Sequence record: OP172790
DNA length: 64,000 nt
Source: Escherichia phage ECO319P1
Reading direction: 5' to 3' (one strand)
Position numbers and translations under genes: made by a program. This document shows positions 3,802 to 33,816 of the stretch, piece by piece; positions within the stretch are counted from its first letter, which is position 1; every line of letters begins with the position of its first letter. The notes beneath the pieces were generated by a model. The model did no database searches. It had not been told where the DNA came from and saw only the letters and a list, made by a program, of their open reading frames with translations.

Positions 3802-4062
3802 ATGGCGGCTGGTTATCTTGGTGGTGACTGTGTACAAGCGCAGATTGACGCGACTATTGACAGCGCGATTGATTTTGCACGTTCGCAGATTAGCAAAGGT
3901 GAGTCGTTAGAATTTTGTGCGGATTGTGATGAAGAAATTCCAGAGGCTAGACGTAAGATTATTACTGGCTGCCGTTACTGCGTTCTTTGTCAATCCAAAC
4001 ACGACCAAAAGGTTAGCTCTGGCTATAATCGTCGGGGTTCAAAGGATAGTCAAATAAGGTGA
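3802..4062 (+). CDS. TraR/DksA-type C4 zinc-finger protein (probable RNAP-binding regulator)
   Basis: CADC...(x17)...CRYC spacing typical of the DksA/TraR zinc finger. Confidence 0.55.
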   Translation: MAAGYLGGDCVQAQIDATIDSAIDFARSQISKGESLEFCADCDEEIPEARRKIITGCRYCVLCQSKHDQKVSSGYNRRGSKDSQIR

Positions 4063-5362: not shown

Positions 5363-5659
5363 ATGGATATCGTAATGCAAGAGTACGAGGACGCTCTAGT
5401 TACCATGCAGTTAGCGGTAACGGCTGAACAGATAAATGCACGTATGGACAAGCGTATGTCCAAACCTAATCGCGCATTAACAGCCTGCATTAATGAAGTG
5501 TTGAAGCGCATCACCTCTGACCAAGTTCGTCGTGTGATGATTGGTATATCTTTTCAGGGGCAGCCAGTAGCAGGTCTTACAAAGACTGTGCGTGAGTATC
5601 TGGAAGTCAAGGCTAAGATTGAACGCGATGGATATGTGATTTTAAAAATGAAGGATTAA
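5363..5659 (+). CDS. hypothetical protein
   Basis: 98 aa ORF. Confidence 0.45.
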   Translation: MDIVMQEYEDALVTMQLAVTAEQINARMDKRMSKPNRALTACINEVLKRITSDQVRRVMIGISFQGQPVAGLTKTVREYLEVKAKIERDGYVILKMKD

Positions 5660-5662
5660 CTT

Positions 5663-6163
5663 ATGTTAGCTTCTGATGTGCCATTCAACACTGTAATAAT
5701 TAAAATGGGTGAGAAGATTAAGAATGCGAACAATCGCCACCTTGTCTTTGATTTTACTGTCGCCCAATTTCAGCGTCTCTTTGTCCGTGGCACCTGTGCT
5801 TACAGTGATAAAGAGTTTCAGAGTACGTCTGATATGACTATTGAACGTCTCGACCCACTAATCGGTTACGTGCATGGTAACTGTGTACTCGTGTGTAACA
5901 GGCTGAATCAGTTACGCAAGCCAATTGATGAATTCCTCAAAGACGTTCGCGTTGACGACGAGGATAAGATTCGCATGTTAGAGCTTGCACTGAAGACTGT
6001 TAAACGTCGAGTCGTTGAAGCTGGTCGTGCTGAACAAGAAGCTATCATGGCTAAACAAATCCGAGCGTCTAACCTCGCTGCGATGGCGAATGATATGAAG
6101 CGTAAGCGCTTTACTACGGTGACGCCCGCCAATGGAGAGTCCCCAAATGAATCATCATGCTGA
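5663..6163 (+). CDS. hypothetical protein with degenerate HNH-like motif
   Basis: segment YVHGNCVLVCNRLNQLRK resembles the distal half of an HNH motif; first His not evident. Confidence 0.4.
   Translation: MLASDVPFNTVIIKMGEKIKNANNRHLVFDFTVAQFQRLFVRGTCAYSDKEFQSTSDMTIERLDPLIGYVHGNCVLVCNRLNQLRKPIDEFLKDVRVDDEDKIRMLELALKTVKRRVVEAGRAEQEAIMAKQIRASNLAAMANDMKRKRFTTVTPANGESPNESSC
6113..6124 (+). repeat. copy 3 of 12-mer ACTACGGTGACG
   Basis: exact match, read as T-T-V-T. Confidence 0.9.
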
Positions 6164-6383
6164 ACTGCATAACGCAACGCTGTATAAACATGACGGTGGT
6201 GCATGGCTTGAAGGTCGTATTTATAACGACACCCATACCCACGGCAATCATCCGTTCCGTGATGGTACTCCAGTCACCACAACTAATGTGAGTGATGAAG
6301 TTCTGGATGGTGGCAACACCTATATGATTACCCGCAACACGACTTATAAAATGGTCGGTGTGGTTCGTGAGGTGGAGTTATGA
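6132..6383 (+). CDS. hypothetical protein
   Basis: 83 aa ORF, start uncertain. Confidence 0.35.
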   Translation: MESPQMNHHAELHNATLYKHDGGAWLEGRIYNDTHTHGNHPFRDGTPVTTTNVSDEVLDGGNTYMITRNTTYKMVGVVREVEL

Positions 6384-7267
6384 TTAAGCTGCTGCTTAAC
6401 AATGTGGAAATGCACTTGAATCGTAAGCGTTTCCCTGATATGGCCACCGGTATTGAAATCGTTGGTCAAGTTCCTGCCCGTGTTGAAGTGGCAACTATTG
6501 ACGCCCGCTTTGATGGAGTTGCAAGCCCAAATGACATGCTCTTTGACATTGCGCAAGCGGTTGATGTGGTGCGCTCTATTAACAGTACTGCGGTTATTCG
6601 TCTGTTTATTCCGTATCTCCCATACGCAAGACAAGACCGCCGCATGACCAAGCATGACGCTTTCAGTTTGAAAGTGTTCGGTAACCTGTTGAATTCATTG
6701 AAGATTAACACAATCATGTGCTTCGATGCTCATTCAGATGTTGCCGCAGGTATCATTGATAACCTGACTGTGATTGGTCAAGACCGAATCATGGGCATCA
6801 GTGAAGTCAGTCACGCATTGACTGTCAACGACCCGCTGATTGTTGCGCCTGATATGGGTGCTGTGAAGAAGATTCACAAAGTCTGTGCGAGCCTTAACCG
6901 TGCTGATTCACCGATTGTCATGGACAAAGAGCGTGAGCCGTCAACTGGTAAGATTGGTAATCATAAGATTATCTTTGGTACTGAGCGTGTTGATGGTCGT
7001 AACTGCTTGATTGTAGACGACATTTGTGATGGTGGTCGTACATTCATTAGCGCAGCGACTGAGTTAAAAGCTGCTGGGGCTGCAACAGTTAGTCTGTATG
7101 TAACTCACGGCATCTTCTCTCAGGGCATTGACGCTCTGTTAGGTGGTGGTATTGATAAAGTATTCACCACTGACTCTTTAATCGACACTGGAACTCTGGC
7201 ATCTGAAAAGGTGCGTGTGTTTAAGTGTAACGATATTCTTTCTGCCTTTTCGATGGGACGTATCTAA
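6380..7267 (+). CDS. adps: PRPP-synthetase-family kinase; candidate ADP-ribose pyrophosphokinase (Adps-like)
   Basis: Prs motifs PYARQDRR, DAHS and PRPP-binding loop LIVDDICDGGRTF; GAGGTGGAG RBS. Confidence 0.75.
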   Translation: MIKLLLNNVEMHLNRKRFPDMATGIEIVGQVPARVEVATIDARFDGVASPNDMLFDIAQAVDVVRSINSTAVIRLFIPYLPYARQDRRMTKHDAFSLKVFGNLLNSLKINTIMCFDAHSDVAAGIIDNLTVIGQDRIMGISEVSHALTVNDPLIVAPDMGAVKKIHKVCASLNRADSPIVMDKEREPSTGKIGNHKIIFGTERVDGRNCLIVDDICDGGRTFISAATELKAAGAATVSLYVTHGIFSQGIDALLGGGIDKVFTTDSLIDTGTLASEKVRVFKCNDILSAFSMGRI

Positions 7268-8932
7268 ATGAAACTGAATCCTCTGTTTGCTGTTGATGGT
7301 TATAAGTTCTCTCATGGCCCGGCCTATCCGAAAGGCACTAACAAGCTGTATGATGTGTTCACACCTCGCAGCGATAAGTATTTCAACAGTCCGTTCTTTA
7401 AGAACTTGGACATTCGTAGCCCGCTGATTTGGGTTGGTATGCAAACCTTCATTCAGCATTGGTTAGTGGACGAGTTCAATGAGAGCTTCTTCAAAGCTGA
7501 TAAAGGTGCTGCTGTTGCCGAATTCAAGGAATTCCTTGATGCTTACTTCGGCGCAGATGCTGTATCTACAGATAACATCGCTGGTCTTCATGACCTTGGT
7601 TATCTGCCACTTGTAATCAAGACGATTCCTGAAGGTTGCAATGTGGATATGAAGGTTGCGACCTGCACCTTCGTCAACACCCATGACGACTTCGCATGGC
7701 TGGTTGGCTATCTCGAAACTTTGGTCAGTGCTGAACTGTGGCCTGCTGCAACTGCTGCCACTATCGCAATGAACTACAAGGCAATCGGCACCTATTGGGC
7801 TGAACTGACTTGTGAAACCAAAGACCACCTGCTGTGGCAATTCCACGACTTCAGTGCTCGTGGTGACATGGGCATGTGGGCTTGTAGCTTAGTTGGCCTC
7901 GGTCACTTAGCATCTTTCCGTGGTACTGACTCGGTGTTCGCACTGAAACGTACAATGACGCACTATGCTGTGCCTAATGTTCCTGCGACTGGCTACCTGT
8001 ACGGTGGTTCTGTTCCGGCAACTGAGCACTCAGTAATGTGCATGGGAGAAAAAGTAAGTGAACTCGAAACGTTCTCGCGGCTCATTCAAGAAGTATATCC
8101 AACGGGAATCGTCAGTATTGTCTCGGACACATGGGATTACTGGAAGGTTATCACCGAATTCCTCCCGACCCTTGCTGACACGATTAATGAACGTGACGGC
8201 AAAGTGGTCATTCGTCCAGATTCTGGTGACCCTATTGATATCATTTGTGGACGCCTATTTACTGACCTGAATGGTTGTGAACATCTGGGTCATGTACAGA
8301 CTGTGCTCATGTCAAAACCGGGTGCTGTTGGTCTGTACAAAGGAACCTATTATGAGTTCAAACGTGCAAGCGAAGAACTTGTAGTTGTGCCTGAGCATGT
8401 AGTTGCTGGCTCAATCGAAATGATGTGGCGTACCTTTGGTGGCACCATCAATAAGAAAGGCTTCAAGGTTCTGAATCCGAAGATTGGCCTGATTTATGGT
8501 GATTCAATCACTATGGAACGTGCCGAAGAAATCTTTGCTCGCCTCGCCGCGAAGGATTTCGCATCTTCAAACGTTGTGCTGGGCATCGGTTCATACACTT
8601 ATCAGTATGTGACCCGTGACACCTTCGGCTTCGCCATGAAAGCAACTTATGGTGAAGTAGACGGCGTTGGTCGTGAAATCTTTAAAGACCCTGCGACTGA
8701 CGATGGCACTAAGAAGTCCGCCAAAGGTCTGCTGAAACACGCATTCATTGATGGCGTATGGACTCAGACAGACATGGCATCTGCTCGTGAAGAACAAGAC
8801 ACTGAGCTGTTGACAGTGTTCCGCGACGGTGTTGCATATCCACATTGCGACATTGAAGTTGTTCGTCAGCGTGTAGACGCTCTGGTCGATGGTCTGGTTT
8901 ACTATCGCATGAAGAAGGAAGGACTGATTTAA
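7268..8932 (+). CDS. namat: Nampt-family phosphoribosyltransferase; candidate nicotinamide ADP-ribose transferase (Namat-like)
   Basis: N-terminus LFAVDGYKFSHG typical of nicotinamide phosphoribosyltransferases; 554 aa; immediately follows the Prs-like gene. Confidence 0.75.
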   Translation: MKLNPLFAVDGYKFSHGPAYPKGTNKLYDVFTPRSDKYFNSPFFKNLDIRSPLIWVGMQTFIQHWLVDEFNESFFKADKGAAVAEFKEFLDAYFGADAVSTDNIAGLHDLGYLPLVIKTIPEGCNVDMKVATCTFVNTHDDFAWLVGYLETLVSAELWPAATAATIAMNYKAIGTYWAELTCETKDHLLWQFHDFSARGDMGMWACSLVGLGHLASFRGTDSVFALKRTMTHYAVPNVPATGYLYGGSVPATEHSVMCMGEKVSELETFSRLIQEVYPTGIVSIVSDTWDYWKVITEFLPTLADTINERDGKVVIRPDSGDPIDIICGRLFTDLNGCEHLGHVQTVLMSKPGAVGLYKGTYYEFKRASEELVVVPEHVVAGSIEMMWRTFGGTINKKGFKVLNPKIGLIYGDSITMERAEEIFARLAAKDFASSNVVLGIGSYTYQYVTRDTFGFAMKATYGEVDGVGREIFKDPATDDGTKKSAKGLLKHAFIDGVWTQTDMASAREEQDTELLTVFRDGVAYPHCDIEVVRQRVDALVDGLVYYRMKKEGLI

Positions 8933-9126
8933 TGTTCGAAGCCTTAAAGAAATTCTTTAACTGGCTTGACACAAAGACAGCAGACCGTGTGTTTGCTGTT
9001 CTCTTTGCTGTCTTCGCTGTCCTTGACTTGAGCAAAGGTCATTATTGGTCTGCATTGTTCGATGTAGTCCTGATGTTACTGAGCATCTGGTCACTCAAAC
9101 GCAAACTCGCTAAAGGTAAAAACTAA
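8932..9126 (+). CDS. small two-TM membrane protein (holin-like topology)
   Basis: two hydrophobic segments and charged C-terminus KRKLAKGKN. Confidence 0.4.
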   Translation: MFEALKKFFNWLDTKTADRVFAVLFAVFAVLDLSKGHYWSALFDVVLMLLSIWSLKRKLAKGKN

Positions 9127-10053
9127 ATGGAACATATCGCACTGTTCGGTGTGCTCGCTGTTGTACTCGTTCTGAGTATCGGCATTGACTTCTTTGGTCA
9201 CAAAGATGGTCACGAAATGTCGTTCAAAGAGAGTGCCATGTGGTCTCTGTTCTGGATTGCAATGGGCATTGGTGTTGGCGGCTTCATCTGGTTTGACTAC
9301 GGTGACGTTGCCGCTAGTGAGTACTTCGCTGGCTACGCAATGGAAAAGGCTCTGTCAATCGACAACCTGATGGTGTTCATGGCAATCTTTACGTTCTTCG
9401 GAATTAAAGATAGCGCTCGTGAGCATAAGATTCTGTTGTGGGGTATCGCTGGTGCATTGGTATTCCGTGGCATCTTTGTTGCTGCTGGTTCTGCCTTGTT
9501 CCATCTGTGGTGGCCTATTCAGGTATTCTTCGGTCTGGTCGTAATCTGGTCGGCTCGTGGCATCCTTGGTGGTGGAGATGATGATGAAGAAGTGGACTTT
9601 AGCCAGAAATGGTTTGTACGTGCAATCAAGAAGTTCTATCCTGTTAGCACTGACAATACAACTTCTAAGTTTTTCACTCGCATCGGCGGTCGTCGCGCTG
9701 TTACTGTTATGTTCCTGTGCTTGGTCACTATTGAACTGTGTGACGTCATGTTCTCGTTCGATAGCGTACCGGCTGTTATCGGCGTAACCAAAGAGCCTGC
9801 ACTTATCTACGCAGCCATGATTATGGCAGTGCTGGGTTTACGTGCTCTGTTCTTCGTGTTAGGTTCACTGATGAAGCACCTGACCCGTCTCGACTTCTTT
9901 GTTGCGATTGTTCTGGTGTTTGTTGGTGTCAAACTTATCGCGGCTCCGTTCGGCTATGAGATGGACGCTATTAGTAGTCTGTGTGTAGTCCTCGGATTGC
10001 TGGGCGCTGGTGTGGTAACATCTCTGGCTTTCCCAAAGCGTGAAAGTTACTAA
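9127..10053 (+). CDS. terC: TerC-family integral membrane protein
   Basis: multi-TM with EKALSIDNLMVFMAIF signature; contains 12-mer copy 4. Confidence 0.7.
   Translation: MEHIALFGVLAVVLVLSIGIDFFGHKDGHEMSFKESAMWSLFWIAMGIGVGGFIWFDYGDVAASEYFAGYAMEKALSIDNLMVFMAIFTFFGIKDSAREHKILLWGIAGALVFRGIFVAAGSALFHLWWPIQVFFGLVVIWSARGILGGGDDDEEVDFSQKWFVRAIKKFYPVSTDNTTSKFFTRIGGRRAVTVMFLCLVTIELCDVMFSFDSVPAVIGVTKEPALIYAAMIMAVLGLRALFFVLGSLMKHLTRLDFFVAIVLVFVGVKLIAAPFGYEMDAISSLCVVLGLLGAGVVTSLAFPKRESY
9296..9307 (+). repeat. copy 4 of 12-mer ACTACGGTGACG
   Basis: exact match, read as D-Y-G-D. Confidence 0.9.
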
Positions 10054-10110
10054 GTAATATCTTCGGAGTCGCTCAATGAGCGGCTTCTATAGGTGTTTCT
10101 TGGAGGTCAT

Positions 10111-10317
10111 ATGAAATATATGTTATTGATTCTTATAGCTTTTAATTGTTATGGGTATCAAACTGACGAAACTGATATGCTGTTCAGTGCTGAGGATTAT
10201 GCACAAGAGCGTCATGTTCAGCGAGTTAAGCCTCACAAAGAAGACAAGAAAGTTATTGTTGTAACTCAAGAGGAACTCGACCGAGTCCTCAAATCAACCA
10301 AAGAAGGAAGTAAATAA
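10111..10317 (+). CDS. small secreted or membrane protein
   Basis: start at ATG 10111 after GGAGGT RBS; N-terminal hydrophobic segment. Confidence 0.45.
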   Translation: MKYMLLILIAFNCYGYQTDETDMLFSAEDYAQERHVQRVKPHKEDKKVIVVTQEELDRVLKSTKEGSK

Positions 10318-10892
10318 TGGCTGTTGTTCTCCGTAAAAACGCATCCCTGAACCTGTCCAAATCTGTAGCGGCTCTGACCACTTACCGTTTCGGCCTGTCT
10401 TGGGACGAAAGCGCTGACCTCGATGCTGTTGCAATGGTTGTTGATGAAAACGGTAAGCTGTTCCCGCCTGTTGAAAACAACATGGCATACTACGGCAACT
10501 GCACCGCTAACAAATTCGGCAATGCTGAAAACCCTGTTCCAGGTCTGACTCACTCCGGTGATGCTCGTGACGGCTCTGCTGCTGGCGACGACGAAACCAT
10601 CGTTATCGACACCACTAAGCTTCAGAAAGACCGCATCATCATTGCTGTAACCTCTTACAGTGAAAATGGCCCGGTTCCGTTCGCTGCTTCCGTTAATCCG
10701 GTTGCTAAACTGTACGACGACAAAGGCAATGTACTGGTCGAAGTTAAGCTGGACGAAAACGTTGCATTCAGCACCGCTGTTGAGTTCGTAGAGATTGCGA
10801 AAGTTAATGGCGACTGGACTGTAACCAACCTGACCAACCCGGCTGGTAACTCCGAAAACGGCCTGACCGACCTGCTGGCTGCACGTAGCTAA
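10317..10892 (+). CDS. terD: TerD-family protein
   Basis: GLSWDESADLDA and HSGDARDG...GDDE motifs align with E. coli TerD as recalled; length 191 aa. Confidence 0.75.
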   Translation: MAVVLRKNASLNLSKSVAALTTYRFGLSWDESADLDAVAMVVDENGKLFPPVENNMAYYGNCTANKFGNAENPVPGLTHSGDARDGSAAGDDETIVIDTTKLQKDRIIIAVTSYSENGPVPFAASVNPVAKLYDDKGNVLVEVKLDENVAFSTAVEFVEIAKVNGDWTVTNLTNPAGNSENGLTDLLAARS

Positions 10893-11154
10893 TGTGGGGC
10901 AGCGGTCGCAGGGCTAACAGCATGTCCAAAGGGCGTGTTGGGCATACTTCGATTCGCAGACCCTCAACTGGTACTGAAACCCCGTTCGGACAACTCCGGG
11001 CGGGTGACTTCTTTACCCACAACGGGCGTCTGTTCTTAAAGACCAACCTGATTGATGCTGTTGAAGTCCCTGACGGGTCTGACGCAATGATAGGGACTAA
11101 TCAGTTCTCTGAAGAGTTCTTAGTTCAGGTTGAAAATGTGGTAATCCACATCCA

Positions 11155-11180
11155 ATAATTATTGCACATTATTATAAGGA
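11155..11180 (+). promoter_or_regulatory. phage promoter element (TAATTATTGCACATTATTATAAGGAG)
   Basis: one of five copies of the conserved element; directly upstream of a gene. Confidence 0.5.
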
Positions 11181-11187
11181 GTATCTC

Positions 11188-11283
11188 ATGCAACTTCCTA
11201 CTGGATTCATAGTGCTCCTTGTTATCTTGTATACACTGAATGCACTGCAACAAGAAGGATATCTTTCATGGCTCTCATTCTGA
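11188..11283 (+). CDS. small hydrophobic leader peptide (31 aa)
   Basis: strong AAGGAG RBS straight after the promoter element; overlaps the start of the following TerD-family gene. Confidence 0.3.
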   Translation: MQLPTGFIVLLVILYTLNALQQEGYLSWLSF

Positions 11284-11927
11284 AGAAGAACCAATCCACT
11301 GACCTCGTATCTGATAAAGGTACTCCGGTTCTGAACCTCACTGTTGGTGCTAATTGGGGTATGATTAGCAAAACTGGTGATAGCAAAGCGGCTGGCTTCT
11401 TCAACCGTATGGCATCTGCTCTGGGTGCTGGAGATACAGTGAAAACCGCTGTTGACCTTGACCTGTCAATGGTCTTCGCTAACGCCAAAGGCGAACTGGT
11501 AGACATGTGCTACTACGGCAATAAGCGTCTGTTCAGTGGTGCAGTTCTGCACTCTGGTGACGACCTCGTTGGTGACGACGAGCAGAACGAAGATGATAAC
11601 GAACTGATTAAGTTCGAAGGCATGAAGGTTCCGTTCGATGTTACCACTGTGTACGTTGTACTGAACTCCTTCCGCCATCAGATGTTCGATGAAATCCCAT
11701 ACATCGGCATCTCTTTCTACGAAGGTCTGGTGAACAAGGGCTCCAAAGGTCTGCGATTCGCTGAGGCTCGTGTTGAGAAAGAGAAAGAAGCTGCTGGCAA
11801 AGAGTGCTGCATCCTCGCTAAGATTGTCCGTACTGGCAAAGGCTGGAACGTGACTCCGCTGTTCGACTACACCTCGGACACCAATCTGCGCGACCTTGCT
11901 CGCACTGCAATTCGTAAGCACGGCTAA
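11268..11927 (+). CDS. TerD-family paralog
   Basis: VDLDLS and HSGDDLVGDDE motifs. Confidence 0.65.
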   Translation: MALILKKNQSTDLVSDKGTPVLNLTVGANWGMISKTGDSKAAGFFNRMASALGAGDTVKTAVDLDLSMVFANAKGELVDMCYYGNKRLFSGAVLHSGDDLVGDDEQNEDDNELIKFEGMKVPFDVTTVYVVLNSFRHQMFDEIPYIGISFYEGLVNKGSKGLRFAEARVEKEKEAAGKECCILAKIVRTGKGWNVTPLFDYTSDTNLRDLARTAIRKHG

Positions 11928-15649: not shown

Positions 15650-16447
15650 ATGCGTAAGATTTACTTAGGTTCAGACCCAGAGCTGTTTACTCGTGATGCA
15701 AACGGCCTCGTATCATCTGTAGCTGGTAAGCTCGGTGCTGATAAGTATCACAAACGCCATGTCACGGACGACATTCGCATTCAGGAAGATAACGTGCTGG
15801 TTGAATTTGATATCAACCCGCATGGCACATTTGCAGGGTTCAACGATAACATGATGCGTGGTATCGCTGCCTGTAATGACGCTGCGAAATCTGTCGGTCA
15901 CGAAGTTGACCTGACTATCTGCTCTCACGTTTTCAGCGATGCAGAGCTTCGTACTTTCCACAAAGACGCATTCGTGTTTGGCTGTGAGCCAGACTTCAAT
16001 GCCCTGACTGGTTCTCGTAATGCGAAACCGGCTGCTGCGGATGTAGGTCTGCGTACTGCCGGTGGTCATATTCATATCGGTTATAACGAAGACCGCAACG
16101 TTGACTCTGAATCTCAGAAGATTCTGGGTGTAATGTGTGATTACTTCCTCGGTATGCCAGCTATCCTTCTGGATGGTGACGACCGTCGTAAAGAACTGTA
16201 TGGTAAAGCTGGAGCTTGCCGCTTCAAAACCTACGGTATCGAGTATCGTGTTCTGTCCAACTTCTGGACTCTGGACGATAAGATGCGTCTGTGGGCTTGG
16301 GAACAGGCTCATAAAGCATACGACTTCACTGTTGGTGATGCAATGGTGTTGGCGTCAATTGTTGACCCGGAAGAAATTCAGCGTGTCATTAATAACAATG
16401 ACAAGGCAATGGCTGAACATTACATCAAGCTGCTGGAGATTATGTAA
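15650..16447 (+). CDS. predicted COOH-NH2 ligase (GCS2-like, phage type)
   Basis: N-terminal GSDPELF and central GGHIHIGY resemble the phage COOH-NH2 ligase type 2 family as I recall it; not verified by search. Confidence 0.5.
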   Translation: MRKIYLGSDPELFTRDANGLVSSVAGKLGADKYHKRHVTDDIRIQEDNVLVEFDINPHGTFAGFNDNMMRGIAACNDAAKSVGHEVDLTICSHVFSDAELRTFHKDAFVFGCEPDFNALTGSRNAKPAAADVGLRTAGGHIHIGYNEDRNVDSESQKILGVMCDYFLGMPAILLDGDDRRKELYGKAGACRFKTYGIEYRVLSNFWTLDDKMRLWAWEQAHKAYDFTVGDAMVLASIVDPEEIQRVINNNDKAMAEHYIKLLEIM

Positions 16448-17025
16448 TGGCTTTACACGATGATTTTGCAATGTACTATAATGGTACATATGTTGGTTAT
16501 CGTAAAGATGGGGATGTAGTCCCCTTCTACATCGAAGCGGTTGATACTGACCGCTCAATCTTTGATTACTCAGAAGCGTCTGAGTCAGAGATGTTCGGTG
16601 ACCAAGCGCTGAGTGCGTTGACCTTCTACGGAAGTATCGACGGCAACCGTGCAACGATTAACCACGACGACCCGAATCTGGTTCTTGAAATGCCAGATAG
16701 TAAGTACATCCAGTTCCGTGGACGTTACTATTGGGTTCAATGGCGAGCGAACCGTTCCACTAAGAAGGGAATGGGTCAGCGTCGTCTCTCAGGCATTCCG
16801 CAATTCAACCATGAAGTCGCTCGTGCGATGTTCTCGGAGCGGTCTGCACCAAACGTAATCGCAGGATGCTTGTTACGTCAGAATAATGAACTTCACTACA
16901 AGGGTGTGGTGGTCGGTTCAATCAATGGCAACGAAGTTGTGTTGGTTTCCGAAGCTGCTCACCTGTTACGTTTTGTATCACGGGAGATGCAGGAATGCCA
17001 AGTTTCGGTAGCACAAGCGGGCTAA
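16447..17025 (+). CDS. hypothetical protein (part of ligase cluster)
   Basis: 192 aa ORF; overlaps the next gene by 31 nt. Confidence 0.4.
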   Translation: MALHDDFAMYYNGTYVGYRKDGDVVPFYIEAVDTDRSIFDYSEASESEMFGDQALSALTFYGSIDGNRATINHDDPNLVLEMPDSKYIQFRGRYYWVQWRANRSTKKGMGQRRLSGIPQFNHEVARAMFSERSAPNVIAGCLLRQNNELHYKGVVVGSINGNEVVLVSEAAHLLRFVSREMQECQVSVAQAG

Positions 17026-18506
17026 GTGAGTCGTCATTAGCAACCCTCCGCGAAGCGGGGGTGATTGACTCAGAAGGTAACTGGTTAACTGGTAACATGC
17101 CTTCACCTTTTGGTGGAGGTTTGGTTGGTTATAACACTGCTGATGTTATTCCTGACACACCACCACCAAGACCAGCACGGACAAGACACGATGGGCGACC
17201 ATTGCGTTCAAGTTCGTATGCCGACATGTTCGGTGGTCTTCGTGCTCAGCCGGTTGCTATGGATGAAATGCCTGAGACTTCAGGTGATTATTATATTTCT
17301 GGTAATGTAGAGGCCGATTCAGAAATGCAAACTATTGCGCAAATTGTTGGGCACCGTGCAACTTATCCAACTCTTGAGAAGCATCCGCTGATTGTAGGTA
17401 CAAATTTGGCAGGTGTTGAGATTGAGTTGGAGGGCATCACTGCTCGTGCTCCACGTTTCAACTACTGGACAGCAAAAGGTGATGGCTCTCTCCGTAACCG
17501 TGGGATGGAATTTGTTTGTTCATCTCCGTGGGGTGGTCGTGACCTGTACAATGCAGCCATTGAAATTGATGGTTGGTTGTTCACTGCTCAGCCAGAAGAT
17601 ACTTGGCGTTGTTCTACTCACGTACACATTGATGTTCGTGATATGACTGTGCCGCAGTTGAAGCGAATGATTCTGGCATATGCAGTTTACGAACGTATTC
17701 TGTTCAAATGCTCAGGCTTCCATCGTTACAAGAATAACTTCTGTGTAGCGTTGGGCTTCGCTCAGGAGTTGGTAACAACTCTGTCTAATGCGTGGGCACT
17801 TCCTGATAACCAGTTCATCAGTCGTTTGACTGGAAATTGGGATAAGTATTCCAGCATCAACATGCTTCCGATTCAGCAGTTCGGCTCTGTCGAATTCCGT
17901 ATCAGTGAAGCGAAGTGGCGCAAAGGTCGTCTGATTCGTTTGGTTAACCGCTTCCTGTCTCTGAAAGAGATTGCGATGCAGCCATTCGAGGGTTCAGAGT
18001 CTGAATTCATTCAGATGCTGGTCAATACCCCGATTAGCAAAATCATTCGTAAAGGTCTGCCGAAGGTTCTTCCAGATGCAGAGATGGATATCGAGATTGG
18101 TTATAAACTGGCTCACGATATCATTAGCATGGCGGCCTTGCGTCGCCTGTCTATCCGCCCTCTGGTTCCGAATCTGTCAGATGATTCACGACAGTTTAAC
18201 GTTGAAATCTTCGAGCCGGGTTATGAGCATATTATGACTCGTATCAACCGCTCAGATAATAACGTTGAGTTGCCTCGTGAAGCCCCTGCAACTATCAACT
18301 TTAGTTGGTGGTATGAAGTTGAGAATCTGATGCTTCAGATGGGTCATACCTACGAGCGCAGTTGGTTCACAGCATCAAGCAACAACCGTCAGATTCACTC
18401 ACTGTTCGAAGAGTATTGTCGTGAACGTCGTGCTGAGCGTCGTCGTCAGGATGAAATCGTTGAACGTGAAGATGATGAAGACGATACCTCTCCAGAGTTC
18501 TGGTAA
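16995..18506 (+). CDS. predicted amidoligase (glutamine-synthetase-like)
   Basis: GVEIELEG...RNRGMEFV...STHVHIDV pattern; 503 aa. Confidence 0.6.
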   Translation: MPSFGSTSGLSESSLATLREAGVIDSEGNWLTGNMPSPFGGGLVGYNTADVIPDTPPPRPARTRHDGRPLRSSSYADMFGGLRAQPVAMDEMPETSGDYYISGNVEADSEMQTIAQIVGHRATYPTLEKHPLIVGTNLAGVEIELEGITARAPRFNYWTAKGDGSLRNRGMEFVCSSPWGGRDLYNAAIEIDGWLFTAQPEDTWRCSTHVHIDVRDMTVPQLKRMILAYAVYERILFKCSGFHRYKNNFCVALGFAQELVTTLSNAWALPDNQFISRLTGNWDKYSSINMLPIQQFGSVEFRISEAKWRKGRLIRLVNRFLSLKEIAMQPFEGSESEFIQMLVNTPISKIIRKGLPKVLPDAEMDIEIGYKLAHDIISMAALRRLSIRPLVPNLSDDSRQFNVEIFEPGYEHIMTRINRSDNNVELPREAPATINFSWWYEVENLMLQMGHTYERSWFTASSNNRQIHSLFEEYCRERRAERRRQDEIVEREDDEDDTSPEFW

Positions 18507-18565
18507 GAATAAATGTGGGGTGTAAAAGCCCCAACTTCAATGTAAATAGATGAAAGGATTTTTGT

Positions 18566-20536
18566 ATGTGTGGGATTGTTCTCGCTGGTGGTAACTTAAT
18601 CGCTCGTGATGTTGAACTGTTCGGTCGTCTACTGTATGCAGATATCGTTCGTGGTGAGCATTCAACGGGTGTGTTCGCAGGGTTTCGTCCTTTTGGTCAT
18701 GACCCAATCCTGAAACTTCGTAAAGCCGCTGTTCCGGCAGATATCTTCTTACGCCGCAAAGAGTTATGGGGTGAAGTGCGTGAACACGCAGTTCCTTCAA
18801 AGACTGTTGCAAATTCTTTCACAACTGCCTATCCGAAATTTATGGTAGGCCACAACCGTTATGCAACTCAGGGTGCAATTAACGATACGAACGCTCACCC
18901 GTTCAACCACGGTAAAATCACTCTGGTTCACAATGGTACATTGACTGACCAGTCTCTGCTCCCAGACCATAAGAACTTCGCTGTTGACAGTGAAAACGTC
19001 GCATGGTCAATCAACAAAATCGGTATTGATGAAACTATTCAGAAATTGAATGGTGCATTCACTCTGGTTTGGCATAACGCCGAAGACAGCACGGTGAACA
19101 TCATCCGTAACGAAGAACGTCCATTCCATCTGGTTGAAACAACTGGTGGTGATTGGTTCGGTGCTTCGGAAGAAGACATGCTTCTGTGGTTAATTAACCG
19201 CAAGAAGTTTGCTCCAACAATCAAACGTCACTTTGAATGTGAAGTAGGTGTTCAGTACGTCTTTGACGTATCCGAAGGCTTCAAGTTCAAGGAGGAACGG
19301 AAGCATACGCTTCCAACCTTTCGCTCATATTCCTACACTGGAAGAACTGGTGGTTATTGGTATGACCAGTGGGATGATGACTATGGGTACGGAAACGGAC
19401 GAGGAACTTCAACAACTTCTCGCAACCAATCCAATAGCCAGAGCTTTAGCTCAAGCTCTTCTAGCGTAACACCGGACAGCCGTTACAAGCAGTTCAATGA
19501 TATGCTGGAAAGCCACGGCATCAACGTCAAAATGGGTGAGCAACTCCGCTTCGAGAGCTTCCAGTTTGACCAGTATCCTAAGTCTCTGGGCAAGGGTAAA
19601 ATGACCGGGTATACTGGCACTGGCGAGTATATTGAGGTTCAGGCTCACGGCACTGATATGGGCATCTTTGTTGAAGGTGCTGAGTACGATGGTAAGATTA
19701 TCTCGTGCTATGAGCAGAATTACATTCTGACAATTATCGTTCAAGACCCAAAACCTGCTCATGTTAATCAGACACTGACCCTCGGTGATTTGGTTAACTC
19801 GGCGGCAAAGGAAACTCCAATTCCTGATACAGGGATTAGTCAGGAAGAGTTGAACGAAGAGTACTACGGTGACGAGGAAGAAGACGACGGCAACGAAGTC
19901 GAAGTAACCTTGAACGGTGAGGTGTACTCAAAAAAGGAATGGGAGGGAAACGACTCATTAAATACTTGCGCAAACTGTTCCTCTCCAATCCCCTTCGACG
20001 ACGTGATTGATACGGTTGTCGATAATGGCGCTGCATTCTGCCATGATTGCGCAAAGCATTACAACCTGTTACCCCCTGAGACGGAGGAGCCAATTGCTCC
20101 TAACCGTTTCGTCTGCCAAAGCTGTGCCAACGAATTGCCGGAAGATTTAGAATCGGCAAAGCCGGGTGTCTGCATTCCTTGTCTTTGCGCTGTAACTAAA
20201 GACAACAATACGGAAATGGCACGTCAACAGTTAATCGAAAAGTACGACCGTTGGGAATCCAATTTGATGCCAGAGGAAGTGGTCACTCCACTGCTTCCGA
20301 AACCAACTGAAGTCTCTCTCGGTGAAATTTCACTGATTCGCAAGAAGTTGAAAAACAACTTGCTGGTTACTGTTAAGCAGTGGATGAAGATGAACAACTG
20401 TGGTTGGTGTCAAAAGCCAATCCAGTGGGTTGATGCTGAAGCCACTGAATTTGTTGGTCAGCAGCCATGCTGTCCGGGATGCTCCAAGAAATTAGAGATG
20501 GGCATCCTTCCAAAACCTATCAATAAGGATAAATGA
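18566..20536 (+). CDS. class II glutamine amidotransferase (Ntn) domain fused to Ser-rich linker and three C-terminal zinc ribbons
   Basis: MCGI N-terminal nucleophile, GHNRYATQG, VHNGTL; CxxC pairs in the C-terminal 200 aa; contains 12-mer copy 6. Confidence 0.7.
   Translation: MCGIVLAGGNLIARDVELFGRLLYADIVRGEHSTGVFAGFRPFGHDPILKLRKAAVPADIFLRRKELWGEVREHAVPSKTVANSFTTAYPKFMVGHNRYATQGAINDTNAHPFNHGKITLVHNGTLTDQSLLPDHKNFAVDSENVAWSINKIGIDETIQKLNGAFTLVWHNAEDSTVNIIRNEERPFHLVETTGGDWFGASEEDMLLWLINRKKFAPTIKRHFECEVGVQYVFDVSEGFKFKEERKHTLPTFRSYSYTGRTGGYWYDQWDDDYGYGNGRGTSTTSRNQSNSQSFSSSSSSVTPDSRYKQFNDMLESHGINVKMGEQLRFESFQFDQYPKSLGKGKMTGYTGTGEYIEVQAHGTDMGIFVEGAEYDGKIISCYEQNYILTIIVQDPKPAHVNQTLTLGDLVNSAAKETPIPDTGISQEELNEEYYGDEEEDDGNEVEVTLNGEVYSKKEWEGNDSLNTCANCSSPIPFDDVIDTVVDNGAAFCHDCAKHYNLLPPETEEPIAPNRFVCQSCANELPEDLESAKPGVCIPCLCAVTKDNNTEMARQQLIEKYDRWESNLMPEEVVTPLLPKPTEVSLGEISLIRKKLKNNLLVTVKQWMKMNNCGWCQKPIQWVDAEATEFVGQQPCCPGCSKKLEMGILPKPINKDK
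19863..19874 (+). repeat. copy 6 of 12-mer ACTACGGTGACG
   Basis: exact match, read as Y-Y-G-D. Confidence 0.9.
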
Positions 20537-20537
20537 T

Positions 20538-20771
20538 ATGGATAATTCAATGAGTGAAGTGAAGGTTTTGCGTCTGGATTCACCTGTGGTGGTTCGAAAA
20601 GTTCCAATGACTGACTTCGGTAGTGATATGCTCCGAGCCATTCGTCGCTTCCAAACTGAGGCGTATGAACGTGCAAAAGGTCAGAAGGTGGAAATCCCTT
20701 ATCCTGTGTGTATTCACATGATGATGTCGGATTACTGCAAGCTGAAAGGCATCCAAGTAACCAATGGCTGA
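20538..20771 (+). CDS. hypothetical protein
   Basis: 77 aa ORF. Confidence 0.4.
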   Translation: MDNSMSEVKVLRLDSPVVVRKVPMTDFGSDMLRAIRRFQTEAYERAKGQKVEIPYPVCIHMMMSDYCKLKGIQVTNG

Positions 20772-20976
20772 TAAAGATGTCGAAAAGGCTCGCAAGGAAA
20801 GCGAGTCTTGGCACAACCGTCAGATTGGAAACTTGTTAGAAGAAGAGTGGGAGTACGCAAAACAAATGGGTACTCAGGAGGGCCAAGAGGCCATCTGGTA
20901 TCTCACTCTTTCTTATGAAACACTGGAAGCAGAAATCATGGAACACAAACGTGATATCCGTGAACTTCATCTTTGA
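20764..20976 (+). CDS. hypothetical protein
   Basis: 70 aa ORF. Confidence 0.4.
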   Translation: MADKDVEKARKESESWHNRQIGNLLEEEWEYAKQMGTQEGQEAIWYLTLSYETLEAEIMEHKRDIRELHL

Positions 20977-21046
20977 GTGAGTTATTTATAGGGTGTCGGT
21001 GAAGCGCCCTATGTGAAATTCATTCTCAACTAAAAGGTACTTATCA

Positions 21047-22246
21047 ATGGCACGTTTAGCAATCTACTCCCACGCTCCTTCTGATTCTGTTAATGCACTT
21101 AAAGCGCACTTATCAGTGGAAGGCGTTGACCTGATTAAAATCAAGCGTCAGAACAGCCGCTTCGCTGGTCGTGAAGGCGATGTAATCATTAACTATGGTT
21201 CATCCTCTTTCCCAATGGAACGTGTTGGTCGTGGTCGTCTGCTGAACAATCCGGGAGCAATCTCTCTGGCTTCTAACAAACTTCGTGCATTCGAGGTGTT
21301 CCAGAACGCTGGGGTTAAGACTGTAGAGTGGACTAATCAACACTCAATCGCTCAAGGTTGGGTAGAACAAGGTGGTATGGTTTATGCAAGAACAACGCTT
21401 CAAGGACATTCTGGTGCCGGTATCGTTATTGGCTACGGAAATCCTGCCGGAGTGGGAGATGCGGGCGACGTACAGGTTACTAGCACCCTTCCTCGCGCAC
21501 AACTGTACACCAAAGCAATCCTGCAAGAACGTCGAGAGTTCCGAATCCATGTAATGGATGGTAAGATTACTTACGTTCAGCAGAAACGTCGTCGTGATGG
21601 TTTCCGTGAGAATGAAACCTACAGCAATCTGGTTCGTAACCACCACACTGGTTGGATTTATGCAACTCAGAACGCTGATGTGTGTGACGAAGCGAAGCGC
21701 GAAGCAATCAAAGCAATCGAAGCTTTAGGTCTGGACTTCGGTGCAGTAGATGTAATCACACGCCGTGGTGAAGCATGGGTTCTCGAAGTCAACACTGCTC
21801 CGGGCATGTCTGGCACTAACCTCGAAACTTATGCAAACAACTTCACTCGCCTGATGAACGGTGAACCCGTTGAAGGTGTAGTGGTTGATATGTCTATCCC
21901 TGTGGAGACGAACAATGATAACCGCAACACCCGTAATGAACGCCAGTCTGGCAATCGCAATACACAACCTCAACCAGAACAACCTCAACCAGAACAACCG
22001 ACGCCAACCCCTGTCGCTACCCCAGCGCCAACAGCACCAGCCGAAGCGCCGGTTTCCTCAGCGACAACCCGCAACACCAATGGTACTGCATTAATTGATA
22101 ACGGTGTTTACAAACTGTTGGTTGATGGTAATGCCACTGTTGGTAAATTCGTTCAAGATTGTGCCCACTTCGAAATTCTTGGCTGGGAGGTTCCGGTCGA
22201 GCATGAAGATGCAACTATTGGGGAACTCCTGTGCACTTTGAACTAA
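21047..22246 (+). CDS. ATP-grasp ligase (RimK/glutathione-synthetase-like) with Pro/Glu-rich linker and extra C-terminal domain
   Basis: GAVDVITRRGEAWVLEVNTAPGMSG ATP-grasp core; QPQPEQPQPEQPTPTP linker. Confidence 0.65.
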   Translation: MARLAIYSHAPSDSVNALKAHLSVEGVDLIKIKRQNSRFAGREGDVIINYGSSSFPMERVGRGRLLNNPGAISLASNKLRAFEVFQNAGVKTVEWTNQHSIAQGWVEQGGMVYARTTLQGHSGAGIVIGYGNPAGVGDAGDVQVTSTLPRAQLYTKAILQERREFRIHVMDGKITYVQQKRRRDGFRENETYSNLVRNHHTGWIYATQNADVCDEAKREAIKAIEALGLDFGAVDVITRRGEAWVLEVNTAPGMSGTNLETYANNFTRLMNGEPVEGVVVDMSIPVETNNDNRNTRNERQSGNRNTQPQPEQPQPEQPTPTPVATPAPTAPAEAPVSSATTRNTNGTALIDNGVYKLLVDGNATVGKFVQDCAHFEILGWEVPVEHEDATIGELLCTLN

Positions 22247-22484: not shown

Positions 22485-23018
22485 ATGGAAACTGCACATA
22501 GTTTAATTCATAATGGATTCTTAAAAGTACATTCAACAACTGTTGATGGTAAAACTTATGAGTATCTGGAAAGCAAGCCGACTGTCTCTACGCTTCTTGT
22601 GGAACAACAAGGGAACCCTCTGGATGATATCCTCACCATTGGTGTTCAACATCGTATTGGTGCATCTGCTGGGGAGTTGAAAGAAAATGCTATCTACACA
22701 CTCGCCTCTGGTTACGTTGATGGTAATGAGACCACAACTGATGCTGCGCATCGTGAAGCCGAGGAAGAATTTGGGGCACGGGGTCATGTTTTTAAATTGG
22801 GAGCAGGATATAACTCGCCTGGAATCTCAACTCAAATTACGGAAATGTTCTGGATGAATGTCCAAGAATGGCATGAGCCGATTGACCCCGGCGAAGGTGT
22901 GAAGCCTATCAAGTTAACTCTTGGTCAGGTTCTGCACATGGTTAAATCCCCGTTCACAGTGCTCAGTATGCCACTGACGAACACAATCCTGCTTTATGCT
23001 GCAATGCGTGGTGTCTAA
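22485..23018 (+). CDS. Nudix hydrolase (ADP-ribose pyrophosphatase-like)
   Basis: Nudix box GYVDGNETTTDAAHREAEEEFGA. Confidence 0.7.
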   Translation: METAHSLIHNGFLKVHSTTVDGKTYEYLESKPTVSTLLVEQQGNPLDDILTIGVQHRIGASAGELKENAIYTLASGYVDGNETTTDAAHREAEEEFGARGHVFKLGAGYNSPGISTQITEMFWMNVQEWHEPIDPGEGVKPIKLTLGQVLHMVKSPFTVLSMPLTNTILLYAAMRGV

Positions 23019-23952: not shown

Positions 23953-24918
23953 TTGAAATTCGAGAAATTCCAATCTCTCGTAAATGAGTCTATGAAGAAC
24001 GTTGGAGGTTTCCTTCGGGATTCCTCCTTCGGGAAACGTAAGGCCATTGTTACCGAGAAAATCCACGGTGCTAACTTCTCTGTCTACTTCGGTTGTAAAG
24101 ACAATGTGGTTGGTATCAACTTCGCTTCTCGTTCTCAGATGCTGTGCCCTGAAACTAACTTCATGAATTGCCAACGCTACTTCACTGAAGAAAAGATTCA
24201 GGAATTGCTGGAACATGCTTCCACAATCATGGCTCTGGACAAATGTGAACTTCGTATCATCGGTGAAATTTACGGTGGCATGGATATCGCTGGAATCAAA
24301 CCCGTTCAGCGAGAAGTCCACTACTCCGGTGATATTGGCTTCCGTGTGTTCCATGCACAAATTGCCAACAACGAAACTGGTGAAGTCTTTGACTACAACT
24401 GGAAGAATGTGAAAGCTCTTGCCAAAGATTTTGGCTTTGAGGTCGCACCAATTGTGGCTGAAGGTCTGACCTTTGAACAGGCTTATGCACTTGACCAGAA
24501 GGTTAAGTCTGCTCTGTCTGACAAAGACCAGATTTGTGAAGGTTACTGTATCCGCGTTGATGCAGATGAAGAAGGTCAAGCACCTTTAATCTTCAAGAAG
24601 CGTAATACTGAGTTCCTTGAAACCAAGGGCACTGTGAAGGCTCCTCAGAATACTGTAGAGCAGACGCAACTCGGTATGGAAGCAATGGCACGTATTGGTG
24701 CATTCATCACACCACAGCGTGTTTCTAACGTCAATAGCCACCACGGTTTCGATAGTCCAAAAGACTTCCAGAAACTGATGGAAGCTGTACTTGATGATGT
24801 GCTCAATGAGTACAAAGCCGAGTATGACGTAGACCTTCGCAATGAGTTGGTCTGGAAAGAAATTAAGCGTTCAGTTGGAGCACAGGTAGTGCCGCTGGTA
24901 CGTGAAGTTCTGCTGTAA
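23953..24918 (+). CDS. RNA ligase-like nucleotidyltransferase (Rnl2-type)
   Basis: motif I lysine in TEKIHGANF; TTG start after GGAG RBS. Confidence 0.6.
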   Translation: MKFEKFQSLVNESMKNVGGFLRDSSFGKRKAIVTEKIHGANFSVYFGCKDNVVGINFASRSQMLCPETNFMNCQRYFTEEKIQELLEHASTIMALDKCELRIIGEIYGGMDIAGIKPVQREVHYSGDIGFRVFHAQIANNETGEVFDYNWKNVKALAKDFGFEVAPIVAEGLTFEQAYALDQKVKSALSDKDQICEGYCIRVDADEEGQAPLIFKKRNTEFLETKGTVKAPQNTVEQTQLGMEAMARIGAFITPQRVSNVNSHHGFDSPKDFQKLMEAVLDDVLNEYKAEYDVDLRNELVWKEIKRSVGAQVVPLVREVLL

Positions 24919-26039: not shown

Positions 26040-26474
26040 ATGAAAGAGTTTATGAACCCAAAAGCTGACCACGTATTCATTGCAACTTATGGCTCACTGC
26101 GTCGTAACATGCAGAACTTCCGAGTCAATGCAAGTGGTGGCGGTGAGTTCATCGGTATGGGTAAGACTGATGATAAATACAATCTGTATCGTTATTCAGG
26201 TTGTTATTTCCCAAGCGTCTCACTGAAACACAGCAGCAATGATAAGCAAGTTGTTGTGGATGTATTTGAAGCTCCGGTGGATGGCATGGAAGGGGCATAT
26301 GATATGCTCGAAGGTTATCCGAGCTTCTACAATCGCACTCAGATTCCGGTGACTCTGGAAGATGGTCGTAGCGTTATGGCGTGGATTTATCACATCGACA
26401 CAGAACAATCTGAACTGATTGAATCTGGTGACTGGTGTGAACATAATGTCGAAGACTACTACAAATCACTGTAA
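26040..26474 (+). CDS. gamma-glutamyl cyclotransferase-like (AIG2/GGCT fold) protein
   Basis: N-terminal YGSL motif and YDMLEGYPSFYNR segment. Confidence 0.55.
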   Translation: MKEFMNPKADHVFIATYGSLRRNMQNFRVNASGGGEFIGMGKTDDKYNLYRYSGCYFPSVSLKHSSNDKQVVVDVFEAPVDGMEGAYDMLEGYPSFYNRTQIPVTLEDGRSVMAWIYHIDTEQSELIESGDWCEHNVEDYYKSL

Positions 26475-33276: not shown

Positions 33277-33429
33277 TGATTGTTCGTAACCGATTGACTG
33301 GTCAATTCGAAAATGCCACTTTCAAAGATGGCTGTTGGGGTTTCCATGAAACTGACGTACAAGAAGGGCTGCCTGATTGCAGCACTGAAGAACAAAGAAG
33401 TGGAAGCGATAGCTCACCAAGCTAATTGC
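33277..33429 (+). CDS. small upstream ORF (50 aa) overlapping the macro gene start
   Basis: strong GGAGG RBS 5 nt upstream of ATG 33277; different frame from macro gene. Confidence 0.3.
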
Positions 33430-33816
33430 TTTTGCACCATGAAGTCTGGCATAGCACCACAGATTGCTAATGCTTGGCCTCAAGTCCGTGAAGTCGATAA
33501 GTTGACTAACTACGGTGACAAGGATAAGATGGGTTCATACTCACTTGCCACTGTTCCCGAAGGTTTTGTGTTCAACATCTATGGTCAATACCATTGGAAT
33601 CGGAGAAACGCTGGTTATGGCACTTCTTATGAGCATCTTGGGATGGGGCTGTCTAGCGTCGCTGACTTTATGGTTAATCATAAGGTTCAAACTTTGGGTC
33701 TGCCTCGAATTGGTTGTGGACTTGCTGGAGGCGATTGGGGGATTGTAGAACACCTAATCAAACACCACTTTGCACACACCGACATTGAAGTAATTGTCTA
33801 CGAACTGGAGAAGTAA
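33346..33816 (+). CDS. macro domain protein
   Basis: KLTYKKGCLIAALKNKEVEAIAHQAN aligns with the macro N-terminal G...AN motif; start placed at ATG 33346. Confidence 0.65.
   Translation: MKLTYKKGCLIAALKNKEVEAIAHQANCFCTMKSGIAPQIANAWPQVREVDKLTNYGDKDKMGSYSLATVPEGFVFNIYGQYHWNRRNAGYGTSYEHLGMGLSSVADFMVNHKVQTLGLPRIGCGLAGGDWGIVEHLIKHHFAHTDIEVIVYELEK

Follow-up and report, generated by a model that had tools for sequence, protein, structure and literature searches.

The subject of this analysis is a 64,000-nucleotide stretch of the genome of Escherichia phage ECO319P1 (sequence record OP172790; the whole stretch is called the window hereafter) and, more specifically, a pair of directly adjacent genes on its plus strand whose products belong to the phosphoribosyl pyrophosphate (PRPP) synthetase (Prs) and nicotinamide phosphoribosyltransferase (Nampt) families. 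An initial annotation had proposed the pair as a candidate for NAD+ reconstitution pathway 1 (NARP1), through which phages rebuild nicotinamide adenine dinucleotide (NAD+) after its depletion by host defences. Open reading frame (ORF) calls, Pfam and PHROG bear out the adjacent Prs-like and Nampt-like reading frames described there, with matches well above chance expectation; they are named below after their products as predicted from sequence:

6380..7267, plus strand: adps, predicted ADP-ribose diphosphokinase (ADP-ribose pyrophosphate, ADPR-PP, synthetase) of the Prs family, 295 aa, ATG start
7268..8932, plus strand: namat, predicted nicotinamide ADP-ribose transferase of the Nampt family, 554 aa, ATG start

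The TAA stop codon of adps (7265-7267) is followed at the very next base by the ATG of namat (junction TAAATG), which places a Namat homologue, by direct adjacency, within the ten genes of adps by which NARP1 is recognised. A Shine-Dalgarno sequence (GAGGTGGAG) lies upstream of adps, which overlaps the preceding ORF by 4 nt. From the Srd-like gene (5663..6163) through to the TerC gene (9127..10053) each gene overlaps or abuts the next, the junctions being a 32-nt overlap, ATGA, TAAATG, TAATG and TAAATG, and the two genes of the pair are tightly coupled in translation. Within the pair, the plus strand contains no sigma-70-like promoter that could be detected, and terminator-like matches were weak and all inside ORFs, with none credible within the pair. 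Because successive genes overlap or abut, with neither a promoter nor a credible terminator inside the pair, we infer that adps and namat are co-transcribed in a long same-strand block, which also holds Srd-like, DksA-like and nucleotide-metabolism genes. Ratios of nonsynonymous to synonymous substitution rates (dN/dS) against Cronobacter phage A24 are 0.26 for adps and 0.09 for namat, and both genes are under purifying selection.

Subfamily placement of the two proteins

NARP1 was described by Osterman et al. 2024 (bioRxiv 10.1101/2024.02.11.579819), who began from a Prs/Nampt Pfam pattern in phage Bas63, and the reactions predicted from that pattern were not the real ones. Adps converts ADP-ribose to ADPR-PP by pyrophosphorylation and, in a PRPP-synthesis control assay, yielded no measurable product, while Namat converts ADPR-PP and nicotinamide to NAD+ and can use PRPP but prefers ADPR-PP. 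In the same work Adps formed a clade specific to phages, in which 97% of the genes adjoin a Namat gene, the pair was found in 859 phage genomes (4.3%), and the pathway overcame the SIR2-HerA, DSR1/2, type I Thoeris and SEFIR defences.

The 295-aa product of adps exceeds the Pfam gathering cut-offs for Pribosyltran_N (PF13793, E 1.7e-7), Pribosyltran (PF00156, E 1.1e-10) and Pribosyl_synth (PF14572, E 1.5e-8), and belongs to phrog_619, 'ribose-phosphate pyrophosphokinase' (PHROG, E 5.7e-77). It passes the broad subfamily model TIGR01251 (138 bits, cut-off 113) and scores 128 bits against a cut-off of 297 in the Prs model PRK01259, in which E. coli Prs reaches 532 bits. Every Prs equivalog cut-off in NCBIfam lies far above its score, and the same holds for the validated Adps of Bacillus phage SPbetaL1; neither window protein matched an Adps or Namat model in NCBIfam release 20.0. 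We aligned it with 18 Namat-associated Adps-type sequences (the validated proteins of Bas63, SPbetaL1 and FADO, further phage proteins from Table S1 of Osterman et al. 2024, and one bacterial homologue) and 7 bacterial Prs sequences. In the resulting neighbour-joining tree it falls inside the Adps-type group, and the split between the 19 Adps-type and 7 Prs sequences was recovered in 300/300 bootstraps. Profile hidden Markov models (HMMs) agree, giving 247 bits with the Adps model and 113 bits with the Prs model, a margin of 134 bits. The Adps model was built without the window and GAP52 sequences, leave-one-out controls were classified correctly, and reference proteins scored as expected of their type (Adps versus Prs model: E. 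coli Prs 140 versus 352 bits, Bas63 Adps 249 versus 89 bits).

Motifs place the protein on the same side. The motifs quoted in the initial annotation are all present, namely PYARQDRR at residues 81-88, DAHS at 116-119 and the PRPP loop DDICDGGRT at 213-221, and the alignment of 19 Adps-type and 7 Prs sequences identifies the following diagnostic or catalytic sites:

6725..6742, plus strand: Adps-type motif DAHSDV, residues 116-121, where Prs has DLHxxQIQGFF
6926..6928, plus strand: Lys183, aligned with the catalytic Lys162 of SPbetaL1 Adps
7016..7042, plus strand: ribose-phosphate binding (PRPP) loop DDICDGGRT, residues 213-221, where Prs has DDMIDTGGT

The substitution K162A in SPbetaL1 Adps abolishes NARP1 activity (10.1101/2024.02.11.579819). 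Among the 120 nearest homologues in a collection of 5.8 billion proteins, D-x-H-S-x-V is present in nearly all and the exact loop DDICDGGRT in 68. Further Adps-type motifs are DKEREPSTGKI (Adps K-x-R-x-x-x-TG-x-I), DDICDGGRTF and APDMGA (Prs: PD-G-G/R). The window protein shares with bacterial Prs the fold and core catalytic chemistry, and its PYARQDRR is nearly the RQDR motif of E. coli Prs. Unlike Prs, however, it lacks DLHxxQIQGFF, DDMIDTGGT and the C-terminal extension of ~30 aa, being 20-30 aa shorter than Prs, and with its scores below the curated equivalog cut-offs it shows none of these marks of a canonical Prs. Together, these comparisons support the assignment of the 295-aa protein to the Adps clade, apart from cellular Prs.

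The 554-aa product of namat matches Pfam NAPRTase (E 2.4e-35), falls just under the NAMPT_N cut-off (22.5 bits, cut-off 25) and belongs to phrog_448, 'nicotinamide phosphoribosyl transferase' (PHROG, E 2.9e-179). Its identity is 95% to the proteins of phages A24 and GAP52 and 44-47% to the validated Namat of Bas63 and SPbetaL1. It was also compared with four Nampts, one from a KVP40-like Vibrio phage, one from a T4-like Klebsiella phage and those of Xanthomonas and human, which gave 29-33% identity; the motif comparison used full genes from genome records. The split between Namat and Nampt was again recovered in 300/300 bootstraps. The best PDB matches are to 9w5x/9w5w (E 6e-119), whose sequence matches that of SPbetaL1 Namat, and to the Namat-type 9ke8 (E 5e-107), ahead of the Nampts of Xanthomonas (Xcc, E 3e-53) and human (E 6e-48). 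In the reciprocal control, the KVP40-like Nampt matched the solved Nampts better (Xcc 1e-117, human 1e-105) than the Namat-type chains (1.6e-72 and 6e-59).

By alignment, all catalytic residues and all residues contacting the nicotinamide or nicotinamide mononucleotide (NMN) moiety are conserved. SPbetaL1 D13, Y15, F189, R192, D215 and the catalytic His correspond to window D10, Y12, F195, R198, D221 and the His of PATEHS, and SPbetaL1 R306, D308, G360, D361, G390, S391, R399 and D400 to window R316, D318, G411, D412, G441, S442, R450 and D451. Specificity can be read from a further element. Lan et al. 2026 (PMC12774641) solved SPbetaL1 Namat and described a selectivity clamp with two elements, a variable loop (SCL) and a helix (SCH). 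The SCH has the consensus GS-X-phi-X-phi-X-phi-TRD, whose aromatics stack on the substrate adenine, and in the SCL the third residue is either Arg or, if the stacking residue comes fourth, Lys/Tyr. This adenine clamp is needed for ADPR-PP use and is dispensable for PRPP chemistry (PMC12774641). The corresponding features of the window protein are:

7361..7423, plus strand: SCL region (TPRSDKYFNSPFFKNLDIRSP), from alignment with the Namat of Bas63 (TPRSDKWFNSP) and SPbetaL1 (TPRTSRVE)
8252..8392, plus strand: 47-aa insertion relative to SPbetaL1 Namat, residues 329-375, from alignment
8588..8620, plus strand: SCH signature GSYTYQYVTRD, residues 441-451, an exact fit to the published Namat consensus

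Tyr443 and Tyr447 align with the adenine-stacking positions of the SCH, where the four Nampts carry sequences of the type GGGLLQ(K/Q/E)xxRD. The adenine clamp thus sets the window protein apart from cellular Nampts, with which it shares the fold and core catalytic chemistry. The SCL, matched by alignment only, reads TPRSDKYF and is of the Bas63 type, with Lys37 as third loop residue and the stacking aromatic Tyr38 as fourth, in a loop 6 residues longer than that of Bas63. The 47-aa insertion is also visible as a gap in the two-stretch 9w5x match (query residues 9-328 and 376-489), and a longer insertion occupies the same site in Bas63 Namat, an enzyme that works in vivo. These data support a closer relationship of the 554-aa protein to Namat than to Nampt.

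The phylogeny and active-site comparison against Adps/Namat and Prs/NadV that the initial annotation had suggested as a check therefore put both proteins on the NARP1 side, each in 300/300 bootstraps. Its caution that sequence alone cannot separate NARP1 enzymes from Prs/NadV has been overtaken, since the Namat signature (PMC12774641) and the motif differences between Adps and Prs make this separation.

Interpretation as a probable NARP1 module

Each sequence feature open to comparison that tells NARP1 enzymes from Prs/Nampt favours NARP1, namely placement in the clades, the motifs specific to them, the clamp signature, reciprocal PDB similarity and adjacency. We posit that the pair is very probably a NARP1 module, its reactions and counter-defence role being assigned from homology. 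In the order of the pathway, a NAD+-depleting defence of the SIR2, TIR or SEFIR type would split NAD+ into ADP-ribose and nicotinamide. Adps (6380..7267) would then use ATP to pyrophosphorylate the 1'' position of ADP-ribose, yielding ADPR-PP, and Namat (7268..8932) would replace the pyrophosphate of ADPR-PP with nicotinamide to give NAD+ directly. With NAD+ regenerated, phage replication could continue.

The pair resembles the NARP1 of Escherichia phage Bas63 (JohannRWettstein, genes 79-80) and of SPbetaL1 (genes 190-191) in the order Adps then Namat on one strand, in clade membership, and in keeping the Adps catalytic Lys, the Namat catalytic residues and the SCH signature; with Bas63 it also shares the SCL type and the Namat insertion site. 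It differs from them in sequence, with identities of only 28-34% (Adps) and 44-47% (Namat), and in its carrier, a Grimontviridae podovirus as opposed to a Felixounavirus and a Spbetavirus. The two Adps proteins carry FPxGE where the window protein has FPDMATGIE, and the 45-nt intergenic gap of Bas63 contrasts with window genes that abut at 0 nt.

Closer relatives are found in Cronobacter phages vB_CsaP_GAP52 and A24 (Grimontviridae, Crifsvirus), to which the pair region has 84-85% DNA identity; the whole window is collinear with A24 (63,009/64,000 bases aligned, 87.4% identity). Both encode the orthologous pair at an equal genome position and among the same neighbours (Srd-like, small ORF, TerC, TerD), and Tables S1/S2 of 10.1101/2024.02.11.579819 list their proteins as 'Namat within 10 genes: Yes' and 'Adps-associated'. 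NARP1 has been on record since 2024, and the tables of that paper already contain the orthologous pairs of the closest relatives; the pair is thus a further example of a known system, and it departs in nothing from the NARP1 family definition. Salmonella phage 7-11, of another genus in the same family, has the pair at an equivalent position with different small neighbours and no Ter genes, which indicates that the conserved unit is the pair itself.

Within this conserved setting the adps segment has diverged. A 1.65-kb patch (5600..7250) covering the Srd-like gene, an 83-aa ORF and adps has 65-78% DNA identity to A24/GAP52, compared with ~90% in the flanks, while A24 and GAP52 remain 88-97% alike across it. 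At the protein level, identity to A24/GAP52 is 71-72% for Adps versus 95% for Namat, and synonymous divergence (dS) is raised in the patch too. Graded Adps alleles of 72-91% identity exist among contigs of ~75 kb. The diverged patch between conserved flanks, the raised dS and the graded allele series suggest that the adps segment has been exchanged independently of namat. An identical Adps protein is in the public record as 'hypothetical protein ECO319P1_00016 [Escherichia phage ECO319P1]', and a search of the literature library found no paper on this phage.

Several points weigh against the NARP1 reading. The identity of the 295-aa protein to validated Adps (28-34%) is no better than that to E. 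coli Prs (30%), and since pairwise identity does not discriminate, the Adps assignment depends on clade placement and motifs and not on close similarity. The tree that provides this placement was built by a distance method (neighbour-joining) with a small and biased Prs outgroup, consisting of E. coli and 6 actinobacterial sequences from Table S1. The N-terminal FxxGE motif, common to Prs and most Adps, is FPDMATGIE here (residues 17-25, window 6428..6454); relatives in the Salmonella phage 7-11 group carry FSDGA at this site, so the loss of the Glu characterises the subclade and is not peculiar to the window adps. Our literature search yielded no Adps structure and no paper on Adps specificity determinants, and the NARP1 assignment of these two proteins is one of sequence comparison. 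Finally, Namat enzymes still make NMN from PRPP in vitro (10.1101/2024.02.11.579819; PMC12774641), and the window pair may therefore have some canonical activity.

A Macro-domain protein and competing readings

The NARP1 module may be part of a longer pathway. Adpp of Vibrio phage Gary is a validated ADPR-1''-phosphate phosphatase (ADPR, ADP-ribose) that extends NARP1 to NARP1-AP, and in this form the pathway defeats aRES, a RES-domain defence known from E. coli, Klebsiella and Enterobacter (Osterman et al. 2026 preprint). The census in that preprint covered two genes either side of NARP1, and the window lineage is not listed in it. No Macro-domain gene was found within two genes of the window pair, whose flanks are the 83-aa ORF, the Srd-like gene, a 64-aa membrane ORF and TerC. 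An Adpp homologue of predicted activity is encoded elsewhere in the same genome, where it was located by following the A24 annotation 'phosphatase':

33313..33816, plus strand: candidate adpp, Macro-domain protein, homologue of the NARP1-AP ADPR-1''-phosphate phosphatase

The gene lies ~24 kb downstream of the pair and 101 nt after nrdD, its stop codon overlaps the start of rtcB, and its true start is likely Met12 (MKLTYKKG). The Macro gene and rtcB (33816..34943, plus strand; PF01139, E 7.5e-80) form an insertion that separates nrdD (31089..33212) from an ORF at 35204..35704, which corresponds by position to the annotated nrdG of A24. RtcB is one of two RNA ligases of the phage, the other being of the Rnl2 type (23953..24918, plus strand; PF09414 and PF18043).

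The Macro protein scores just under the Pfam Macro cut-off (E 5.4e-4, 20.3 bits, cut-off 22) and belongs to phrog_335 (E 2.5e-53). It has 47% identity to Gary Adpp (E 1e-44), with which it shares its PHROG and an identical GLP-IGCGLAGGDW loop, and a neighbour-joining tree without support values places it as sister to the Gary clade. Of the 80 IMG/VR relatives nearest to it, 21 have Adps/Namat on the same strand no more than 2.5 kb away. In 93-kb Pseudomonas phages the IMG/VR loci show the Macro gene 233 nt from Namat, so these phages are no example of an unlinked Macro gene. The gene is conserved in A24 with a dN/dS of 0.14, indicating purifying selection.

We tentatively propose, as somewhat less than an even chance, that the NARP1 pair and the unlinked Adpp-type Macro phosphatase beside nrdD and rtcB form a dispersed NARP1-AP that would counter both ADP-ribose-producing and aRES defences. 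This would extend the NARP1 reading and not compete with it: the Macro protein would dephosphorylate ADPR-1''-phosphate, the product of aRES, to ADP-ribose, which Adps and Namat would then convert to NAD+. The similarity to validated Gary Adpp, the NARP1 linkage of relatives, the retention of the gene in A24 and the occurrence of aRES in enterobacterial hosts all speak for such a role. The window phage encodes all three protein families of the Gary Adps-Adpp-Namat operon, but its Macro gene stands outside the operon between nrdD and rtcB, and phage 7-11-type copies likewise adjoin nrdD. The family is also widespread, occurring in 2808 phage records that include T4-like phages (33-39% identity), for which the NARP1 paper's tables, as far as consulted and with no direct test of the point, list no NARP1 pair. 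Moreover, Macro domains have many substrates, the best PDB relatives of this protein are de-ADP-ribosylases of the TARG1/SCO6735 type, and its tree position carries no support values.

Two other readings draw on further NAD-related genes of the phage:

22485..23018, plus strand: 177-aa protein with a marginal NUDIX match (PF00293, E 2e-4, 21.8 bits, cut-off 21.1; phrog_19657)
46716..47393, plus strand: PnuC-like nicotinamide riboside/NMN transporter (PF04973, E 3.4e-25; TIGR01528, 65 bits, cut-off 42; phrog_1880)

NARP1 chemistry might mainly recycle ADP-ribose released by other NAD+-consuming reactions during infection, in which case counter-defence would not be its main role. Such a housekeeping function would fit the position of the pair among nucleotide-metabolism and host-takeover genes, with no obvious anti-defence island, and the presence of the PnuC-like, weakly Nudix-like and Macro genes. 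We consider it improbable, firstly because pathway intermediates in Bas63 appear only with a defence system present and deletion has a phenotype only on defended hosts (10.1101/2024.02.11.579819), and secondly because the annotated DNA ligase of the phage (A24 annotation) is ATP-dependent and not NAD-dependent.

It is very unlikely that the pair is instead an auxiliary metabolic module for canonical salvage. In that case a true PRPP synthetase and a true Nampt would convert ribose-5-phosphate, ATP and nicotinamide to NMN, leaving the last steps to NAD+ to host NadR or PncC/NadD/NadE. The two proteins bear Prs/Nampt names in Pfam, PHROG and NCBIfam alike, NCBIfam and PHROG labelling them ribose-phosphate diphosphokinase and nicotinate/nicotinamide phosphoribosyltransferase. 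The level of identity to E. coli Prs and the PRPP-to-NMN activity of Namat enzymes in vitro point the same way, and a phage-encoded nicotinamide riboside transporter would suit a salvage theme. Against this stand the bootstrap support for the Adps clade, the HMM margin, the absence of Prs-specific motifs and the perfect conservation of a clamp signature required for ADPR-PP and dispensable for PRPP. The canonical Prs/Nampt reaction has, moreover, been tested and rejected in the same protein family, for Bas63 and SPbetaL1 (10.1101/2024.02.11.579819).

NARP2 of Vibrio phage KVP40 (Nampt plus Nmnat) shares with the window pair a Nampt-family enzyme and the goal of NAD+ restoration, but the KVP40-like Nampt has GMGGGLLQQLDRD where the window protein has the aromatic clamp. 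Pfam scans of 43 of the 53 plus-strand ORFs that reach 100 aa or more in the first 48.7 kb, which excluded ORFs under 100 aa, the minus-strand structural block and ~11 kb of genome outside the window, found no Nmnat (CTP_transf_like), RyR domain or second Macro domain, and neither did the A24 annotation; NARP2 is therefore not supported.

Neighbouring genes and significance

The genes around the pair are the following:

3802..4062: DksA/TraR zinc-finger protein
5663..6163, plus strand: Srd-like anti-sigma protein, encoded two genes upstream of adps and homologous to 'decoy of host sigma70' (phrog_4592, E 1.3e-22)
6132..6383, plus strand: 83-aa ORF with a stop codon that overlaps the start of adps (ATGA), true start probably the second Met, 54% identity to its A24 counterpart
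8932..11927, plus strand: stretch following namat, with first a 64-aa ORF (two hydrophobic stretches, no family match) and then the TerC and TerD genes listed next
9127..10053, plus strand: TerC-family membrane protein (PF03741, E 1.6e-40)
10317..10892 and 11268..11927, plus strand: two TerD-domain proteins

The two small ORFs and the Ter genes were considered as further components of the NARP1 module and set aside. The 83-aa ORF (6132..6383) was considered as an accessory gene and has no Pfam match even at E 10; the 5.8 billion proteins contain 6 homologues, all of 78-81 aa and in related phage contigs. The 64-aa ORF, likewise set aside as a module part, is probably a small membrane protein that goes with TerC. 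The TerC and two TerD genes are tightly packed after the pair and occur in Crifsvirus phages, but Salmonella phage 7-11 has the pair without any Ter genes, and we therefore treat them as neighbours only. Neither RyDEP (RyR domain) nor an operon-linked Macro accessory adjoins the pair.

The PnuC-like gene is a third NAD-related gene of the phage and may add precursor import. Upstream of it (45339..46613, plus strand) are a nucleoside 2-deoxyribosyltransferase-like gene (phrog_1817, E 3.5e-61), a gene for a 134-aa protein (phrog_3986) and one for a protein with a DUF3310/nucleotide-kinase-associated domain. Elsewhere, the window carries a phiEco32-type cluster (15650..22246, plus strand) encoding a COOH-NH2 ligase, an amidoligase and a RimK-like ATP-grasp protein, in which the ORF at 18566..20536 corresponds by position to the annotated glutamine amidotransferase of A24, and a gamma-glutamyl cyclotransferase gene at 26040..26474.

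With this pair, a further lineage, that of a Crifsvirus-type Escherichia phage, joins those with a counter-defence pathway present in ~4% of sequenced phages. Standard annotation still hides NARP1, as Adps is a 'hypothetical protein' in GenBank and curated libraries report Prs/NAPRTase, and pairs can be classified from sequence with a set of motifs comprising GS-aromatic-x-aromatic-x-aromatic-x-TRD in Namat and D-x-H-S-x-V and DDICDGGxTF in Adps. Such classification is relevant to predicting which therapeutic phages escape NAD+-depleting defences. The unlinked Adpp homologue suggests that NARP1-AP may be commoner than operon-based counts indicate, and if the dispersed arrangement is real, censuses restricted to two genes either side of NARP1 would underestimate the number of phages with the extended pathway.

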